DNA of 13,012 nucleotides, taken from IMG/VR virus record IMGVR_UViG_2667527633_000002, one strand, 5' to 3'. Shown piece by piece: positions 1,641 through 10,898 of this stretch. Every line of letters starts with the position of its first letter. Positions within the stretch are counted from its first letter, which is position 1. The position numbers and the translations under genes were made by a program. Source of the DNA: a virus (Duplodnaviria > Heunggongvirae > Uroviricota > Caudoviricetes). The notes beneath the pieces are model-generated. The model did no database searches. It worked only from the letters and a program-made list of their open reading frames with translations, and had not been told where the DNA came from.

Positions 1641-4112
1641 TTAAGAATCAGCCTGACTCGGGATCAGTTTTTGCCAGATAACTGAAACGTATTTTGCCTG
1701 GTAACGGGCGTCATCAAGTGCATTATGGCGCTCACCTTCGAATGGAATAGCCGTTCTGGCATCGAAGTCTATGGCTTTCCCCAGCTCAACGATTGTGCGT
1801 ACATCGCGATCGTTGTAGTAACGCCACGGGCAGGGGATCCCCTGCCGTTCGTATGAACGGCGCAAAATCGTGTTGTCGAAGTTGGCTCCATTTCCCCAGA
1901 CCTGAACAAAAAATTCACCGGAGTTTTCGTCGATAAATTCCCACAATTGTAACAGTGCATCATCTAACGGGATTTCATCGGTCATAATGGCAGATTGCGC
2001 TTCGCGTGATTGCTTAAGCCACCATTTAATGGTGTCCCGATCAATGACTCCGCCAGCAGTTTCCAGATCGATAGTCTTACTAAATTCCGGTCCCATATCT
2101 CCGGTTTGCGGATCGAAAAATATTGCACCTATTGAGATGATCGGGGCATCAGGATTTTTTCCCATGGTTTCAAGGTCGATCATTAGATGGTCACACGTCC
2201 TGCTGGTGGATGTGATTTCTTGATGACCGTTCACCTTAATTGAGTGATCTGCCGTCTCGCCAGTTTCATTATCGCTATCGTGATGCTGATTGCCGCCAGT
2301 GTTCTCCTTGTGTGGATGTTCAGCGCCTTCCATTTCCTCCGGATCATCTTCCTGAACTTCAATCTGATACTCTTCATCGAATGTTTCCTGGTATGTTGCG
2401 TCGCCCATTACCGCGCCACAATCAGGGCAGTTGCCGCCGCCGGTCTGACCGCAGGCGGTGCAGACTTTTTCCACTTCCTGTTGCGCCACTGATTCAGGCT
2501 GTTTCGTTTCTGGCTCGTTTTGTAACGCATTTGGGCTGTTTTGTTCCGCTTTTTGGTAGTTCCGTTCCGATTCATGCTGGTTCTGGTTCACAGAATCGCG
2601 GGTCTGGATCCCCTTAACCCATTTCGGATCATTCGGGTCACTAATCCCTTCAACAAATTCACCACGTGATGCAGCAAGCAACTTATCGGCGTCAGGCTGG
2701 ATGATATTGGCTGCCTGCATAATTTTGTTTACTTCGTCAGCGGTAACTTTTATCGGCTCTGGTTGTTCTGAATCTTCAGCGGTATCTACATTTTGCGGTA
2801 AGCCCGTGTATGTGCCATTTTTTCGGGCAAAATATTCTTCTTTTGTGATTTCAGTGGCGCCAGCAGCCAGTGCCTTATCCAGACCAGAAAGTTTGTTTGC
2901 GCGACCGTATTTTTCTCCGTCCTTATCTGCGAAGAGGAAATAGAACGGCCCCTCACGCTCTACAGATGGTTCAGCTTCCGGCGCGGTTTCATTTTTTGGG
3001 ATATCAGATACCTCAGTTTCCACTGCATCAGTTTGTGTTTCTGATGACTGGAGAACATCAACAGTGCCCAGGTCTGTTTCTTCATTCTCAAACACGCCCT
3101 TTGTCGTCAGGTATTCGCAGATATATTTGTTCAGTGCTACGGGATCTTTGTGAATGTCGATCGGACGCTCACGGACAAGGCCAAAAATAGTTTGGCGGTC
3201 GTAGCGAAGGGCATCAGGCTGTTTGCGCATTGATGCCGAGATACGCTTCCAGTCTTCGCGGTCGTTGTCGATAACTTCATTTTTTGCCCAGCGATGGATG
3301 CTGCCGTCAATGTTTCCGGCATCCACATCACCAGGCCAGAGAGCGTAGGCCAGTTCGTCATCCAGTGTTTTCCATGTCTGCTTGTATTCGCGATGAATGG
3401 CAGCAATGACCGGGCTGATTTTTCCTGTTGAATTTTCAGTGTACTGTTGATTGGCTCTGGCGCGGGCGAGATCAACAACAGACGTGTATTTTCCGGTTTC
3501 CTTGCGTTCACCTTCGCGACGTTTTTTCCAGATGCGCATCTCTGCCTGAATTTCGGGCCATTTAGCACCAGGAATACATTTATGCTTAACCCACCCAATG
3601 GCGTGCAACTTAAGCTCCGGATACATGGCGTTAACTTCTGGCATTTTCATCAACGCTTCAACGATATGTCCGTCGAATGTTGCCATGTCTTCCTGCAACA
3701 ATTCCTGTGCGCTAATAACCATATCAACGGTGATGTTTTCACATGTGTCGAACTTAACCATGACAGCGTTCTGTACTTCAGGGGCCAGCTTGTCAAAAGT
3801 GACGTTCATCGGATCGGATTCAGTCTCAACCGGGACAAAAGAAGCAGACTCCTCATCCCAGCGGTTTTCCTGCATATATTCAGCATCCCATGAATCGAGG
3901 GCAGGGCGGGGTATGCCAGGTTTATCCTCGCAGACAATAAATTTATAAGCGCAGTCCTGAGCAGCCGGATAATGTTCCAGGAATTGCCAGTGAAATTTTG
4001 CTCGAGCACGGCGTTCGTCGCCAGCTTCAATGGCTGTGGCTACAGCCACAGCGCCTTCTTCCCTTGTTGCCAGTTCGTCAGGAATAGCGGCGCAAATAAA
4101 GACTTTACTCAT
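1641..4112 (-). CDS. Prophage exonuclease with C-terminal DnaQ-like DEDDh 3'-5' exonuclease domain (full-length relative of the K-12 YdfE fragment, often annotated exodeoxyribonuclease VIII)
   Basis: Long ORF (835 codons from a TTG at 4148; 823 aa from the ATG at 4112, which has a GAGG Shine-Dalgarno 9 nt upstream). The C-terminus carries the three DEDDh motifs: MIDLETMG, VWGNGANFD and HNALDDARY. The middle is a long acidic low-complexity stretch containing a Cys4 motif CTACGQTGGGNCPDCG. The N-terminus MSKVFICAAIPDELATREEG matches my memory of K-12 ydfE. Confidence 0.85.
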   Translation of the reverse strand: MSKVFICAAIPDELATREEGAVAVATAIEAGDERRARAKFHWQFLEHYPAAQDCAYKFIVCEDKPGIPRPALDSWDAEYMQENRWDEESASFVPVETESDPMNVTFDKLAPEVQNAVMVKFDTCENITVDMVISAQELLQEDMATFDGHIVEALMKMPEVNAMYPELKLHAIGWVKHKCIPGAKWPEIQAEMRIWKKRREGERKETGKYTSVVDLARARANQQYTENSTGKISPVIAAIHREYKQTWKTLDDELAYALWPGDVDAGNIDGSIHRWAKNEVIDNDREDWKRISASMRKQPDALRYDRQTIFGLVRERPIDIHKDPVALNKYICEYLTTKGVFENEETDLGTVDVLQSSETQTDAVETEVSDIPKNETAPEAEPSVEREGPFYFLFADKDGEKYGRANKLSGLDKALAAGATEITKEEYFARKNGTYTGLPQNVDTAEDSEQPEPIKVTADEVNKIMQAANIIQPDADKLLAASRGEFVEGISDPNDPKWVKGIQTRDSVNQNQHESERNYQKAEQNSPNALQNEPETKQPESVAQQEVEKVCTACGQTGGGNCPDCGAVMGDATYQETFDEEYQIEVQEDDPEEMEGAEHPHKENTGGNQHHDSDNETGETADHSIKVNGHQEITSTSRTCDHLMIDLETMGKNPDAPIISIGAIFFDPQTGDMGPEFSKTIDLETAGGVIDRDTIKWWLKQSREAQSAIMTDEIPLDDALLQLWEFIDENSGEFFVQVWGNGANFDNTILRRSYERQGIPCPWRYYNDRDVRTIVELGKAIDFDARTAIPFEGERHNALDDARYQAKYVSVIWQKLIPSQADS

Positions 4113-4204
4113 TTGTTTTAACCTCATGACAGATTTAAGGATGAACAAATCCCTGCCATTGCTGGCATATAAGAATGAAACCGGATATTTATTACGGAAC
4201 TGTT

Positions 4205-4396: not shown

Positions 4397-4581
4397 TGTG
4401 CACATCCTTTTGGCATCAGACGTAAACGAGCCAGCATTGAAACAATGCATATTTTATTTAATAGCTCCCGTTCTTGTTTTCTCTTGTTAATGGCATCTTC
4501 AGTAAATACTGGGTTACTGATAGTGACACCAATTTCAAAACAACCTTCAGACGTATTAACGTTTGGTAATAACGTTTTCAT
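4393..4581 (-). CDS. dicB: Cell division inhibitor DicB (MinC-interacting)
   Basis: 62-aa product MKTLLPNVNTSEGCFEIGVTISNPVFTEDAINKRKQERELLNKICIVSMLARLRLMPKGCAQ, recognised as DicB from memory. GAGGA Shine-Dalgarno 7 nt upstream of the ATG at 4581. Located immediately downstream of the dicF sequence. Confidence 0.8.
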   Translation of the reverse strand: MKTLLPNVNTSEGCFEIGVTISNPVFTEDAINKRKQERELLNKICIVSMLARLRLMPKGCAQ

Positions 4582-4750: not shown

Positions 4751-4808
4751 AAAAAGGGCGGCAGAGCAGTCACGGAGTAAAACTGATACCGCCAAACGTC
4801 ACCAGAAA
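4751..4808 (-). ncRNA. dicF: DicF small regulatory RNA (ftsZ-targeting), including terminator U-tract
   Basis: The minus-strand sequence TTTCTGGTGACGTTTGGCGGTATCAGTTTTACTCCGTGACTGCTCTGCCGCCCTTTTT matches the DicF sequence as I recall it. GGCGG and CCGCC arms followed by a T5 run form the terminator. Lies between ydfC and dicB as in the dicB operon. Confidence 0.75.
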
Positions 4809-5974: not shown

Positions 5975-6613
5975 TTAAATATCTTGTTGAATTTTAAAGC
6001 ATACGCCCAATATGCAAGATAGATCATCCAGCATAATTGAAGGGTAGCGAGGATTCGTGGGGACTAAAAGAATATCCGGCCCTTCTATCTCCAGTTTACG
6101 AATGACAGGTGTTGTGGTCCCTTTGGGTAAGGCAAGGACAATATTTCCTGGTTGTACGGTTCGATCGGGATCAACAAAAACTGTTGAACCATTTGGGATG
6201 GAAACTCCCCCACCAGATGTTGACATACTGTCACTCTCTAGAACAACTGCAAAGGTATTGACCGGGATTTCTCCGACAAGCTGCACACAAGAGGTTATTG
6301 AGGAATTTTTCATATAATCACTCCAGCTTGCTGCCTGCTGAAGTGATAGTAGCGGAACCGTTTTTATCGGCGGTAAAGATAGATCAAGCGAATCACCTGT
6401 ATTTAACTCTCCTCCATTAAGAAGCCAATTTTCGTTTACTTTCAATATTTTTGCCAGTGAACTTATGTAACGCGAGGACGGCGCTCCTCCACCGTTCATC
6501 CATTGACTTACGGAGCCTTTTGATGCGCCAGTGCCATTGACAAGGTCTTTGCCTTTCAGGTTTAGCGCATGCATACGTTGGGTTATGCGTTCAGATATAG
6601 TTTGCTTGCTCAT
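5975..6613 (-). CDS. CI/LexA-like prophage repressor (N-terminal XRE HTH, C-terminal S24 autopeptidase)
   Basis: 212 aa. N-terminus has an HTH-like segment. C-terminus has an S24-like serine (VLESDSMS) and lysine (VIRKL). Transcribed divergently from the Cro-like gene. No Shine-Dalgarno precedes the ATG, and a TAAAAT hexamer ends 6 nt upstream of it, suggesting a leaderless mRNA. Confidence 0.9.
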   Translation of the reverse strand: MSKQTISERITQRMHALNLKGKDLVNGTGASKGSVSQWMNGGGAPSSRYISSLAKILKVNENWLLNGGELNTGDSLDLSLPPIKTVPLLSLQQAASWSDYMKNSSITSCVQLVGEIPVNTFAVVLESDSMSTSGGGVSIPNGSTVFVDPDRTVQPGNIVLALPKGTTTPVIRKLEIEGPDILLVPTNPRYPSIMLDDLSCILGVCFKIQQDI

Positions 6614-6646: not shown

Positions 6647-6675
6647 TTGACTTTCTTTGGTTTTGATTATTAAAC
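6647..6675 (+). promoter_or_regulatory. Candidate promoter for the Cro-like gene (pR analogue)
   Basis: TTGACT at 6647-6652. A weak -10 candidate follows (TATTAA at 6668-6673 or TTAAAC at 6670-6675). Overlaps the degenerate operator-like site. Low confidence. Confidence 0.3.
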
Positions 6676-6704
6676 TTTTGACGTTCAGTTTTATGGAGCG
6701 ACTC

Positions 6705-6935
6705 ATGAAAAAATCAGAAGTATTAGGCTATTTTGGCGGAGTTGTTAAAACAGCCGCAGCTCTAGGAACGTCAAAAACCACAGTCAGCATGTGGGGGGAA
6801 GAGGTTCCGTGGAAATGGGCGTTGCTAATTCAGGCAGTCACTGCCGGGGCGCTCAAATATGAGTTACACATACCGACGGTTGTCATTCCCGGTTCTGATC
6901 ATAATCCGCCTTCTAACCAAGGGGGGGATTCATGA
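6705..6935 (+). CDS. Cro/YdaS/DicC-like small HTH regulator
   Basis: 76-aa product MKKSEVLGYFGGVVKTAAALGTSKTTVSMWGE... from the internal ATG, with a GGAG Shine-Dalgarno 6 nt upstream. Divergent from the repressor. Its stop overlaps the next gene's start (ATGA). Confidence 0.75.
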   Translation: MKKSEVLGYFGGVVKTAAALGTSKTTVSMWGEEVPWKWALLIQAVTAGALKYELHIPTVVIPGSDHNPPSNQGGDS

Positions 6936-7357
6936 AAATCAAGCATGAACACATCCGCATGGCGATGAATGCCTGGGCGCATCCGGACGGCGAAAAAGTA
7001 CCGGCTGCGAAAATTACCAAAGCGTATTTCGAGCTGGGAATGACGTTCCCGGAACTGTATGACGACAGCCATCCGGAAGCCCTGGCTCGCAATACCCAGA
7101 AAATTTTCCGCTGGGTAGAGAAAGACACCCCTGATGCAGTTGAAAAAATTCAGGCGTTGTTACCAGCGATCGAAAAGGCAATGCCACCTTTGCTGGTGGC
7201 CAGAATGCGCAGCCACAGTTCAGCTTATTTTCGGGAGCTGGTGGAGACGCGGGAGCGACTGGTGAGAGACGCTGATGATTTTGTCGCAGTGGCAATCGCC
7301 GGTTTCAATCAGATGAACCGTGGTGGCCCGGCAGGAAATGCTGTGGCAGTACATTGA
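6932..7357 (+). CDS. YdaT-like protein (CII-like regulator; sometimes annotated toxin YdaT)
   Basis: 141 aa. Translationally coupled to the Cro-like gene. Occupies the cII position. The family assignment is from recollection of Rac YdaT-type proteins. Confidence 0.65.
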   Translation: MKIKHEHIRMAMNAWAHPDGEKVPAAKITKAYFELGMTFPELYDDSHPEALARNTQKIFRWVEKDTPDAVEKIQALLPAIEKAMPPLLVARMRSHSSAYFRELVETRERLVRDADDFVAVAIAGFNQMNRGGPAGNAVAVH

Positions 7358-7422
7358 CTGACAATAGCCATATCGAATCGCTTCCGGCAACTCGTGAGTA
7401 AAAAGATTCGGTATCAGAAGAG

Positions 7423-8499
7423 GTGAGTATGGCTAACGCCTGGCTCAGATTATGGCATGACATGCCAAATGACCCTAAGTGGCGAACAATTGCCAGGGTG
7501 TCAGGGCAGCCAATTGCAACAGTGATGGCAGTGTATATCCACCTCCTGGTGAGCGCGTCACGAAATGTCACGCGAGGTCACATTGATGTCACGACAGAAG
7601 ATTTGGCAAGTGCGCTCGACGTGACAGAAGAGGTAATTGATTCAATTTTGCAGACGATGCAGGGGCGGGTACTTGATGGTGATTTAATCACTGGATGGGA
7701 AAAACGCCAGGTGCTGAAAGAGGACAACGGCAATATTTCGCAAACCGCAAAATCTCCGGCAGAGCGCAAGAGGGCGCAGCGAGAGAGGGAAAGAAAGCGG
7801 GAACAAAATGGCGATTGTCACGGCGCGTCACGAAATGTCACGCACATGTCACGACGAGTCACGACAGATAAAGATACAGATAAAGATACAGATCAAGAAG
7901 ATCAAAACACTATGGTCCATGGCGTAAAAAACGCCACGAACCAGGCAGGGGATGTTCAGACCGTCAATCCTGGTCAGCCAGCAGGCACGACACCGGAAGC
8001 CGATTCAGCGTATGCGCTGAAAGCCGATTCGGGCGCTGTGCAGCAGGTGATGACCCCAAGGCCGGAGCAATCACACCAACTGCAGCAGCCTGAAGCCGAT
8101 TCCGCCATTCAGCGGGAAGCCGATCGGGTAGTCCCGGAAAACACCGGGCTGTCTGTGGGACGAGTGGATTATCCGGATGTGTTCGAACAGGTCTGGCGGG
8201 AGTACCCGTTGCGTGCCGGAGCAAACCCGAAGAAATCCGCTTTCAGTGCCTGGAAGGCCAGATTACGCGAGGGGGTGCCACCAGAGGCCATGCTGGATGG
8301 CGTGAGGCGTTACGCAAGATACTTGGCGGCTACCGGGAAAACGGGAACGGAATTTGTTCAGCGAGCGACGACGTTTTTTGGACCGGACCGGAATTTTGAG
8401 AACCCCTGGTTGCTCCCGGTAAGCGGCACGAACAACCAGCGTTGTGTGAATCATATTTCTGAACCGGATACCGAAATTCCACCGGGCTTCAGGGGGTAA
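7423..8499 (+). CDS. Phage replication initiator / replisome organiser (iteron-binding, conserved phage C-terminal domain)
   Basis: 358 aa with a GAGGTGA Shine-Dalgarno. The C-terminal segment YPLRAGANPKKSAFSAWKARLREGVPPEAMLDGVRRYARYL is typical of phage replication proteins. Two iteron clusters lie inside the gene. Confidence 0.8.
   Translation: MSMANAWLRLWHDMPNDPKWRTIARVSGQPIATVMAVYIHLLVSASRNVTRGHIDVTTEDLASALDVTEEVIDSILQTMQGRVLDGDLITGWEKRQVLKEDNGNISQTAKSPAERKRAQRERERKREQNGDCHGASRNVTHMSRRVTTDKDTDKDTDQEDQNTMVHGVKNATNQAGDVQTVNPGQPAGTTPEADSAYALKADSGAVQQVMTPRPEQSHQLQQPEADSAIQREADRVVPENTGLSVGRVDYPDVFEQVWREYPLRAGANPKKSAFSAWKARLREGVPPEAMLDGVRRYARYLAATGKTGTEFVQRATTFFGPDRNFENPWLLPVSGTNNQRCVNHISEPDTEIPPGFRG
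7557..7593. repeat. Iteron cluster 1: four GTCAC(G/A) hexamers phased at 10-11 bp
   Basis: Hexamers start at 7557, 7567, 7577 and 7588. Confidence 0.7.
7817..7863. repeat. Iteron cluster 2: five GTCACG hexamers phased at 10-11 bp (putative origin core)
   Basis: Hexamers start at 7817, 7827, 7837, 7848 and 7858. The 19-mer GCGTCACGAAATGTCACGC is shared with cluster 1. Confidence 0.7.
7865..7900. repeat. AT-rich tandem repeat adjoining the iterons (2 x CAGATAAAGATA plus a diverged third copy with two GATC sites)
   Basis: Perfect 12-bp copies at 7865-7876 and 7877-7888, then CAGATCAAGAAG. Encodes DKDTDKDTDQED in the initiator. Resembles the iteron plus AT-rich layout of lambda ori inside gene O. 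Confidence 0.6.
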
Positions 8500-8539
8500 G
8501 TGTTGATTTCTGGTCATGAGGTAATTTTCAGGAGGGCTT

Positions 8540-8962
8540 GTGGCAAAAGTTTTTACACAAGAAGAGCGAGAAAAAATTAAAGGGCAGGTTGTTGAACTCG
8601 TACGCCAGAGTGGGCGTGAGACGTTACGGCAACTGGAAGTCAAGACAGGTGCGACAAGATATCTGATGAGCGTTCTCGCAAGAGAGCTGGTTGCCAGCGG
8701 CGATGTATACAACTCCGGCTACGGGTTATTCCCCTCTGAACAGGCGCGTAAGGACTGGCAAAACGCCCGCAAAAAACTCTCGAGGGCAAAGGTGAAGAAA
8801 CCTGCTGTGGTTGATCCGGACCTTATCTGGTCATCACCTGACGGAGAAATACGTCGCTACGACAGTCGCCTAAACATAATCTGTCGCGAGTGCCGGAAGA
8901 GTGAAGCTATGCAGCGTGTACTGGCTTTCTATCAGGGTAATTTTCAGGAGGCGGTACTGTGA
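8540..8962 (+). CDS. Hypothetical protein (140 aa), GTG start
   Basis: AGGAGG lies 4 nt upstream of the GTG. Basic protein with no family I recognise. Confidence 0.55.
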   Translation: MAKVFTQEEREKIKGQVVELVRQSGRETLRQLEVKTGATRYLMSVLARELVASGDVYNSGYGLFPSEQARKDWQNARKKLSRAKVKKPAVVDPDLIWSSPDGEIRRYDSRLNIICRECRKSEAMQRVLAFYQGNFQEAVL

Positions 8963-10535: not shown

Positions 10536-10742
10536 CGGTTTGCGGGGAAATCTTAGTTAAGTAGAATGACTGCGGGTGCTTGAGGCTATCTGTCTCAGGC
10601 ATGAACACCAAAAGGCAGATAGAGAAAAGCCCCAGTTAACATTACGCGTCCTGCAAGACGCTTAACATTAATCTGAGGCCATATCTATGCGACACATAGA
10701 GATTAGCCTCTTACGGACCGAAAGGTCAAGGAGAAGCAGGCT

Positions 10743-10898
10743 ATGAAGCAGCAAAAGGCGATGTTAATCGCCCTGATCGTCATCTGTTTAACCGTCATAG
10801 TGACGGCACTGGTAACGAGGAAAGACCTCTGCGAGGTACGAATCCGAACCGGCCAGACGGAGGTCGCTGTCTTCACAGCTTACGAACCTGAGGAGTAA
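10743..10898 (+). CDS. hokD: Hok-family type I toxin (HokD/RelF-like, 51 aa)
   Basis: MKQQKAMLIALIVICLTVIVTALVTRKDLCEVRIRTGQTEVAVFTAYEPEE matches HokD as I recall it. Below the ORF-track cut-off. AAGGAGAAG lies upstream. Confidence 0.85.
   Translation: MKQQKAMLIALIVICLTVIVTALVTRKDLCEVRIRTGQTEVAVFTAYEPEE

Follow-up and report, generated by a model that had tools for sequence, protein, structure and literature searches.

A probable iteron-type replication origin embedded in the initiator gene of a Rac-like lambdoid prophage

We analyzed a 13,012-nt stretch of Caudoviricetes DNA, IMG/VR record IMGVR_UViG_2667527633_000002. This whole stretch is called the window below, and all coordinates refer to it. 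Judged by its genes, the element is a Rac-like lambdoid prophage. Its gene at 7429-8499 carries two arrays of GTCAC(G/A) hexamers, the second of which is followed by an A-rich tract. We propose, with a probability of roughly 0.8, that the segment 7555-7905 is an iteron-type vegetative origin lying in the gene of its own initiator, where it would be bound by the N-terminal region of that initiator and unwound at the A-rich tract. A first-pass annotation, made from the sequence alone, had called the gene a replication initiator. This was borne out by a full-length match of its product to phrog_3729, “replication initiation protein” (E = 1.7e-256), and by its place in the gene order, behind a cro-like and a cII/YdaT-like gene, which corresponds to that of lambda O behind cro and cII. 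The NCBI annotation of the protein is “phage replisome organizer,” and the whole protein matched no Pfam family at E <= 0.01. The elements that concern us are the following.

7429-8499, + strand: initiator gene with the repeats, 356 residues (open reading frame list and translation), GAGGTGA ahead of the ATG at 7429
7557-7593, + strand: iteron array 1, four direct GTCAC(G/A) copies at 7557, 7567, 7577 and 7588 (spacing 10, 10, 11)
7620-7625, - strand: tenth GTCACG copy, inverted, 27 bp past array 1, in codons 64-66
7817-7863, + strand: iteron array 2, five direct GTCACG copies at 7817, 7827, 7837, 7848 and 7858 (spacing 10, 10, 11, 10), the putative core initiator-binding array
7864-7905, + strand: A-rich, purine-rich tract of low G+C, ACAGATAAAGAT x 2.9, proposed DNA unwinding element
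7913-7943, no strand assigned: inverted repeat of 13 pairs, TGGTCCATGGCGT AAAAA ACGCCACGAACCA, starting 8 bp past the A-rich tract

Repeats in the initiator gene and selection on their DNA

The first-pass annotation had reported nine hexamers in clusters of four and five, 10-11 bp apart. All nine were recovered at the same positions, but the inverted tenth copy had been overlooked. The clusters had also been described as lying about 260 bp apart and sharing a 19-mer, which agrees with our mapping: the array starts are separated by 260 bp, with about 230 bp between the arrays, and the two copies of the 19-mer GCGTCACGAAATGTCACGC, at 7555-7573 and 7825-7843, are offset by 270 bp. The tandem repeat directly past array 2 and its two GATC sites (7891-7894 and 7900-7903) are present as described, except that Tandem Repeats Finder gave 2.9 rather than 2.5 copies of the 12-bp unit (7864-7898). 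The G+C content drops to 0.35 at 7860-7919, compared with about 0.43-0.63 elsewhere in the gene, and the top strand is A-rich there. The window therefore has a high-A/T region directly past the iterons, as a lambda-type origin requires. The definition of an iteron-type origin, at least three helix-phased direct repeats specific to the initiator, describes these arrays as well, with their 10/10/11-bp spacing.

The clustering of the hexamers is far beyond chance. GTCACR (R being a purine) occurs seven times in the remaining 12.7 kb of the window, giving an expectation of 0.17 in the 311 bp that span the arrays, and the Poisson probability of finding at least 10 sites there is 5e-15. Nine copies were never reached when the synonymous codons of the gene were shuffled 5000 times (mean 2.4, maximum 7).

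Repeats inside a gene might have no role in cis and reflect slippage or duplication, or selection for a repeated peptide (SRNVT, DKDT). The shared 19-mer does encode ASRNVT in the same frame in both arrays, and the A-rich tract is always read as D-K or D-T. However, the hexamers occupy all three codon frames (2, 0, 1, 0 in array 1 and 1, 2, 0, 2, 0 in array 2), showing that what repeats is the DNA sequence rather than the peptide, and a period of 10-11 bp makes a peptide repeat impossible. Synonymous sites tell the same story. We compared 23 nonredundant GTCACG-type relatives from Aeromonas, Pseudomonas, Bordetella, Serratia, Stenotrophomonas and others. For codons with their third base inside a hexamer, the mean entropy was 0.19 bit, against 1.51 bit for other codons of conserved residues among residues 1-100 (Mann-Whitney p = 9e-7). 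V47 is GTC, T48 is ACG and G50 is GGT in all 23, whereas R49, which lies between two hexamers, uses four codons. The V65 codon in the inverted copy is GTG in 19/19 sequences. Thus, synonymous sites inside the hexamers are nearly invariant and neighboring codons vary freely. In the array 2 peptide, S134, V144 and T145 are invariant in 34 homologues, although this conserved stretch sits in a linker predicted to be disordered. Finally, both arrays change their repeat together across subfamilies, as described below. Codon frames, synonymous sites and the joint change of the arrays contradict selection on a repeated peptide, and we regard repeats devoid of a cis role as extremely improbable. The hexamers are selected as DNA-level elements. 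The same three observations support the first-pass claim that this DNA both encodes protein and acts in cis.

The A-rich tract is read in a single frame in nearly all loci, so that frame cannot separate DNA-level from peptide-level selection. We therefore examined codon third bases. The D, K and E codons of the tract end in A/T in 81% of cases, versus 52% in the remainder of these genes (p = 5e-35); where the host G+C content is at least 0.58, the corresponding values are 73% and 43%. Such a preference suggests that low duplex stability has been selected, as it would be in an unwinding element.

Other DNA elements were considered around the arrays. GATC sites in or just past the tract number 18 in 11 loci from Dam-methylating hosts (Enterobacterales, Aeromonas), about three times the local background; in other hosts, the tract zone has 10 sites in 27 loci. 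This enrichment suggests a link to Dam/SeqA control, as at oriC. The inverted repeat at 7913-7943 has a terminator-like score on the - strand, and short C/G-rich palindromes occupy the post-tract place in many relatives. The best stem past the tract averaged 6.05 pairs over 63 loci versus 5.55 in controls. In view of this weak family-wide enrichment, a conserved hairpin was dropped as a part of the origin. Likewise, DnaA boxes next to the iterons, a common feature of plasmid origins, were sought and none was convincing. The initiator gene contains no perfect TTWTNCACA box; sites with a single mismatch lie at 7395, 7646 and 7696, and the closest perfect one, at 8551, is in the next gene.

The layout in related phages and prophages

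Seven phage records, including Tritos, Evi and vB_EcoS-640R1, match the segment 7300-8600 at 97-99% identity, and at least 80% of the segment is found in 1646 of 5426 complete E. coli genomes (~30%). Tritos and Evi are inducible phages that carry the element. Among 69 near-identical E. coli loci in IMG/VR, the 4 + 5 pattern is present in 67, and the number of A-tract units is variable.

The first-pass annotation had suggested looking for the same arrangement in related prophages, and it was found there. With residues 1-159 as the query, tblastn identified several Pseudomonas phages and Aeromonas phage pAEv1818, whose N-terminal 137 residues are ~70% identical to those of the window protein. 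In pAEv1818 and Pseudomonas phage phi1, four copies lie at +129, +139, +149 and +160, as in the window, followed by an inverted copy near +192 and three or four copies near +389, with an A-rich tract directly after them. The inverted copy is kept at about +192 in many relatives. The C-terminal halves of these two proteins are unrelated to that of the window, and the next gene encodes a DnaC-like loader in one phage and a DnaB-like helicase in the other.

We next extended the comparison across the family, to which at least 797 protein clusters belong; it is found in Gamma-, Beta- and Alphaproteobacteria and also outside these classes. A scan limited to one genome from each bacterial species gave 64 loci with N-terminal identities of 41-99%; besides genome loci, the 62 loci analyzed included the window and four loci from phages. 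In the array 2 zone, 54/62 loci have three or more phased copies, in arrays of three to seven. The array 2 pentamer also occurs at least twice in the array 1 zone of 47 of these 54 loci and at least three times in 39, while the same test in three control zones gave 1, 0 and 0 loci. The arrays thus change together with the N-terminal module, through iterons of the types GTCACG, GAACGC/AACGCA, GCAACG, GTAACG, TAACGC and TGACGC. For instance, both arrays are built of GCAACG in Ralstonia phage Firinga and of GAACGC in a Manatee Spring podovirus. A purine-rich tract of the type (C/A)CAGATAAAGATAAAGA or CAGATACAGATA directly follows array 2 in most of the related loci examined. Within the layout, conservation is strongest for array 2 and the A/T-selected tract. 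No significant helical phasing was detected between the arrays: with gaps of 179 to 340 bp, a Rayleigh test for a period of 10.5 bp gave p = 0.24, and an apparent signal at 10.0 bp is confounded by the gain of iterons in 10-bp steps.

The arrays could instead be initiator-binding sites that serve mainly for control, by blocking transcription from the early promoter or by titrating or pairing initiator molecules in the manner of plasmid control iterons, with the origin located elsewhere or confined to the A-rich tract. Their position in the transcription path of the initiator gene fits such a role, as do the separation into two arrays of which only the second adjoins the tract, and the existence of relatives that lack array 1. 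Nevertheless, the best conserved part is array 2 with its adjoining A/T-selected tract, which is the signature of an origin. Moreover, the only 100-bp intervals with at least three GTCACR sites in the complete 46-kb genome of Tritos are the two arrays, and its annotation lists no helicase, loader, primase or second initiator; the record has no annotated origin feature. A control function of array 1 would be compatible with the origin reading and would not replace it. A purely regulatory role is thus possible for array 1 and unlikely for array 2 and the tract, and we consider it unlikely that the two arrays serve mainly for control.

Considered as geometry alone, four plus five direct repeats at 10-11 bp spacing would also suit a centromere-like or packaging site; parC of plasmid R1 has two sets of repeats spaced by one helical turn. 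However, no partition genes are nearby, and integrase and excisionase genes mark the element as an integrating prophage. The terminase genes of Tritos are at the far end of its genome, and the A/T-selected tract and the place of the arrays inside an initiator gene fit an origin. A partition or packaging function is therefore extremely improbable.

The distribution of C-terminal halves suggests that the family is modular. The initiator of Shiga-toxin phage 75/02 is 65% identical to that of the window from residue 158 to the end, unrelated before that point, and free of GTCACG repeats. Its junction lies right past the A-rich tract, so that the N-terminal domain, the iterons and the tract form one exchangeable unit. 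The C-terminal half is found behind at least three other N-terminal domains, including a PF13730 helix-turn-helix domain. In these comparisons, the N-terminal domain, iterons and tract behave together as a module of origin specificity, to which an exchangeable effector module is attached.

One locus, L044, from a Noviherbaspirillum metagenome-assembled genome (+100 to +430), looks like a natural chimera. Its residues 1-98 are 83% identical to those of L059, a member of the GAACGC class, whereas the GTCACG class is represented by residues 98-125, with the basic helix described below, and by array 2 (3 x TGTCACGCCA). The array 1 zone is devoid of repeats. The sequence hints at retention of array 1 only where the two arrays match, and at a possible role of the basic helix in specificity.

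Several loci illustrate how arrays vary. Escherichia albertii L007 has six copies in array 1 (+129 to +181). Iteron number shifts in 21-bp steps, which correspond to two helical turns and to seven codons, and the alternating 10-/11-bp spacing may serve to keep both reading frame and helical phase. The close relatives L030 (Erwinia, GTCAC) and L031 (Enterobacter, GTAAC) differ by one iteron base. Together with L027 (Pantoea), they have denser copies at +140 to +460, some overlapping or inverted, e.g., GTCACGTCACGTCACG.

Initiator architecture and a proposed mechanism

The AlphaFold2 models and profile searches divide the initiator into the following parts.

7429-7713, + strand: N-terminal winged-helix-like domain, residues 1-95 (AlphaFold2)
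7756-7806, + strand: basic helix, residues 110-126, AERKRAQRERERKRE (AlphaFold2)
7810-8163, + strand: long disordered linker, residues 128-245 (AlphaFold2, predicted local distance difference test score [pLDDT] < 50)
8176-8334, + strand: small C-terminal helical domain, residues 250-302 (helices 250-258, 268-281 and 285-302, pLDDT 73-80)
8425-8496, + strand: DnaT-like C-terminal tail, ISEPDTEIPPGFRG (PDB and NF002770 matches)

In the model of residues 1-159, helices 4-14, 16-25 and 29-45 are followed by a loop with a short strand (46-55), helices 56-63 and 67-77, a beta hairpin (78-87) and the basic helix. The core of this model has a pLDDT of about 87-94, with a dip to 76 in the loop at residues 41-50; taken over both models, the pLDDT is about 82-94 over residues 11-90 and 70-76 in the loop. 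For the N-terminal part, a Pfam search at E values up to 10 returned only Phage_rep_org_N and HTH_Crp_2, the latter as a subthreshold match to residues 39-79. Residues 5-123 align with positions 1-119 of the 121-position Phage_rep_org_N profile (PF09681) at 16.2 bits, against a gathering score of 23.3, and TIGR01714 was also below its threshold (15.4 versus 49.8 bits). None of 15 family members scanned matched Phage_rep_org_N at E 0.01. As the match falls below threshold, the protein is only a candidate member of the replisome-organizer family.

The C-terminal helical domain, presumed to be an effector or recruitment module, matches phrog_1701, “DnaD-like helicase loader,” and phrog_9327, “primosomal protein”; a Foldseek search of the PDB provided no identification for it. 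The last 22 residues resemble the C terminus of host DnaT (6aep, 2ru8 and 9zbt, E 0.02-0.07), and the tail matches positions 156-179 of the DnaT family NF002770. The final 14 residues of the initiator are EPDTEIPPGFRG. The same terminal PPGF(R/K)G motif is found in YdaU of the K-12 Rac prophage (L001 4924-4974) and in several relatives with other C-terminal domains. The tail may therefore be a short mimic of a host motif that recruits restart or helicase-loading machinery.

We placed the DNA elements on the predicted structure. Array 1 codes for the end of helix 29-45 and the loop that precedes the helix-turn-helix (codons 43-55), and the inverted copy for the turn between the two helices of the helix-turn-helix (56-63 and 67-77). 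Array 2 and the tract correspond to codons 130-157, at the start of the disordered segment. They thus lie between the DNA-binding and recruitment domains, and array 1 lies inside the folded N-terminal domain.

We then asked which part of the protein might read the iteron. Outside the array 1 loop and residues 99-126, the N-terminal domains of different iteron classes are nearly alike, and the predicted winged-helix recognition helix shows no visible variation with iteron class. On the basis of the models and of one case, L044, the basic helix is a possible second DNA-contacting element. A bolder proposal is that the 6-bp core is read, with one protomer per turn, not by the recognition helix but by the basic helix (residues about 100-126) or the array 1-encoded loop. 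We think it improbable that this would prove correct. Were the loop to read the iteron, the site would be written into its own reader and a change of iteron would alter both at once, which could explain six or more specificities within one family.

The uniform recognition helix might also be taken to mean that another protein, a host factor or a phage regulator such as the cII/YdaT-like or DUF977 protein, binds the hexamers, the more so as we infer binding by the initiator. However, GTCACG loci occur in Escherichia, Aeromonas, Pseudomonas, Bordetella, Stenotrophomonas and others, and their flanking genes vary: downstream lies a DUF977, DnaC-like loader or DnaB-like helicase gene, and the upstream regulators differ too. 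A host factor would leave unexplained the six or more iteron variants in related hosts, as in L030 versus L031. Since only the N-terminal initiator module is constant across the loci, binding by another protein is very unlikely.

We therefore favor initiation by the encoded protein and propose the following mechanism. Upon induction, the initiator would be produced from the rightward early operon (cro-like, cII/YdaT-like, initiator). Its N-terminal region, made of the winged helix and the basic helix (residues 1 to about 126), would bind the GTCACG hexamers. Since each turn of the helix carries one hexamer, the protomers would form a head-to-tail row on a single face of the duplex. The five copies of array 2 would nucleate an oligomer beside the tract at 7864-7905, which would melt. 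Array 1, with its four direct copies and one inverted copy, most likely binds the same protein as an auxiliary array, because its type changes together with that of array 2. It might stabilize or enlarge the complex by looping or wrapping, or tune initiation. The C-terminal domain and the DnaT-like tail would then bring in the helicase-loading machinery of the host, which we invoke because no phage helicase or loader gene follows the initiator.

Several points weigh against this interpretation. Recognition of GTCACG by the initiator is deduced from linkage, part of which is unavoidable because the iterons lie inside the module to which they are linked. No specificity-determining residues could be assigned, and the Foldseek searches of the PDB with both models returned only weak matches to winged-helix regulators (E > 0.2). 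The relatives L043, L044, L060 and L066 have array 2 and the tract without array 1, showing that array 1 is not universally needed. The reading frame of the tract is fixed, GAT-AAA or GAT-ACA, in 44/45 loci, and its conservation may in part reflect selection for a charged peptide in the linker. The relatives share a phylogeny, so that the p values given above overstate independence. In addition, our searches of the literature turned up no experiment on this initiator family.

Comparison with known origins and the prophage context

The first-pass annotation had likened the arrangement to lambda ori, where iterons and then a high-AT region lie inside gene O, whose product has an N-terminal DNA-binding domain, a flexible linker and a C-terminal domain (PMC6022878). 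The likeness holds for the order of the elements inside the gene. In both cases, the origin is in the initiator gene of the rightward early operon, past cro and cII, the initiator-binding repeats are followed by an adjoining A/T-rich region, and the protein is organized into an N-terminal part, a linker and a C-terminal part. It does not extend to the components themselves. The window protein has no detectable homology to O (no match to Pfam Phage_rep_O). In lambda, four internally symmetric iterons of 18 bp form a single cluster (PMC6022878), and a dimer binds to each of them, whereas the window has asymmetric 6-bp direct cores, one per turn, in two arrays of four (plus one inverted) and five. 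Moreover, the window annotation shows no P-like helicase-delivery gene after the initiator; a DnaT-like C-terminal tail is present instead.

A second precedent for an iteron-type origin in an initiator gene is oriL of Bacillus phage SPP1 (PMC6316719), inside gene 38, the gene of the replisome organizer G38P. In the middle of gene 38 (L152 533-627), GAAACGACA / GAAAAAGACAC repeats ~11 bp apart precede an A-rich tandem repeat of AACAATGATAAC, and the window similarly has repeats and an AT-rich element inside the gene of the putative organizer. In contrast, the window protein has no significant similarity to G38P, and none is detectable N-terminally; G38P matches only the C-terminal Pfam family Phg_2220_C. 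SPP1 has its own loader and helicase (G39P and G40P) encoded beside gene 38, which the window lacks, and a second origin, oriR, elsewhere, whereas Tritos has no second GTCACR cluster.

The Rac prophage is reported to have an active origin, oriJ (PMC3945230). The K-12 Rac prophage and the window share the gene order recE, repressor, ydaS/cro, ydaT, initiator, and YdaU has the same DnaT-like tail. The DNA of the ydaU linker (L001 4505-4657) contains TGTTCAA-type direct repeats at 4512, 4545, 4557 and 4568, then a AATAAAGATACAGATAAAGATC tract, AATAAAGATACAGATAAAGATCTAAAAACAGATC, with two GATC sites, and a CCCCCCC...GGGGG palindrome. These elements may be the sequence of oriJ. YdaU differs in that its N-terminal domain is a DUF1376 domain unrelated to that of the window, its repeats are different, and a DnaC-like gene, ydaV, follows.

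Iteron plasmids and phage-plasmids such as P1, F, pSC101 and R6K have helix-phased direct repeats, a replicon-specific initiator and an adjoining A/T-rich region. Their iterons are about 17-22 bp long and usually located outside the rep gene, with DnaA boxes nearby, and extra sets are auxiliary or serve control. The window differs by its 6-bp cores at 10-11 bp spacing, inside coding sequence, in a gene without a perfect DnaA box.

An origin made of iterons and an A/T-rich element inside an initiator gene is thus already well known in kind. Our literature searches turned up no description of the origin of the window or of the family-wide two-array layout. A located origin offers a handle for building replicons, helps to interpret prophage induction and copy-number data, and indicates the place to look in hundreds of related prophages. 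The family further provides a natural series on joint specificity change, with six or more iteron types, among them GTCACG, GTAACG and GCAACG, which differ by single bases, with natural chimeras, and with coding constraints from the initiator itself on part of the site array. This comparative series makes the joint evolution of initiator and site experimentally approachable.

The other genes of the prophage considered here are listed below.

2-1297, - strand: integrase
1641-4148, - strand: RecE-like exonuclease
5975-6613, - strand: S24 repressor
6657-6935, + strand: Cro-like regulator
6932-7357, + strand: YdaT/cII-like regulator
8540-8962, + strand: DUF977/Ren-like protein

A zinc-ribbon protein gene follows that of the DUF977/Ren-like protein on the 3' side of the initiator. 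Rfam identified, above gathering score, a DicF small RNA at 4756-4807 (- strand) and a sok antitoxin RNA of a hok/sok locus at 10574-10745 (+ strand), which are ordinary cargo of Rac- and Qin-type prophages. An Rfam scan of 7000-8600 yielded no relevant RNA element.

A search for plasmids with the module as sole replicon turned up only two 50.9-kb circular Pseudomonas aeruginosa records, CP137943 and CP124671, both of which are lambdoid phage genomes; their evidence is suggestive rather than decisive. The initiator is missing from the gene table of these “plasmids” (L153 4001-4897) and is unannotated in the GenBank record of phi1 (L003 2501-3400). Database entries for the initiator protein are often marked “partial” and located on very short contigs (clusters P0002, P0008, P0010 and others); P0010, with 1121 member sequences, is on a 683-bp contig. 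Assemblies probably break inside the initiator gene, because several prophages per genome have parts of it in common.

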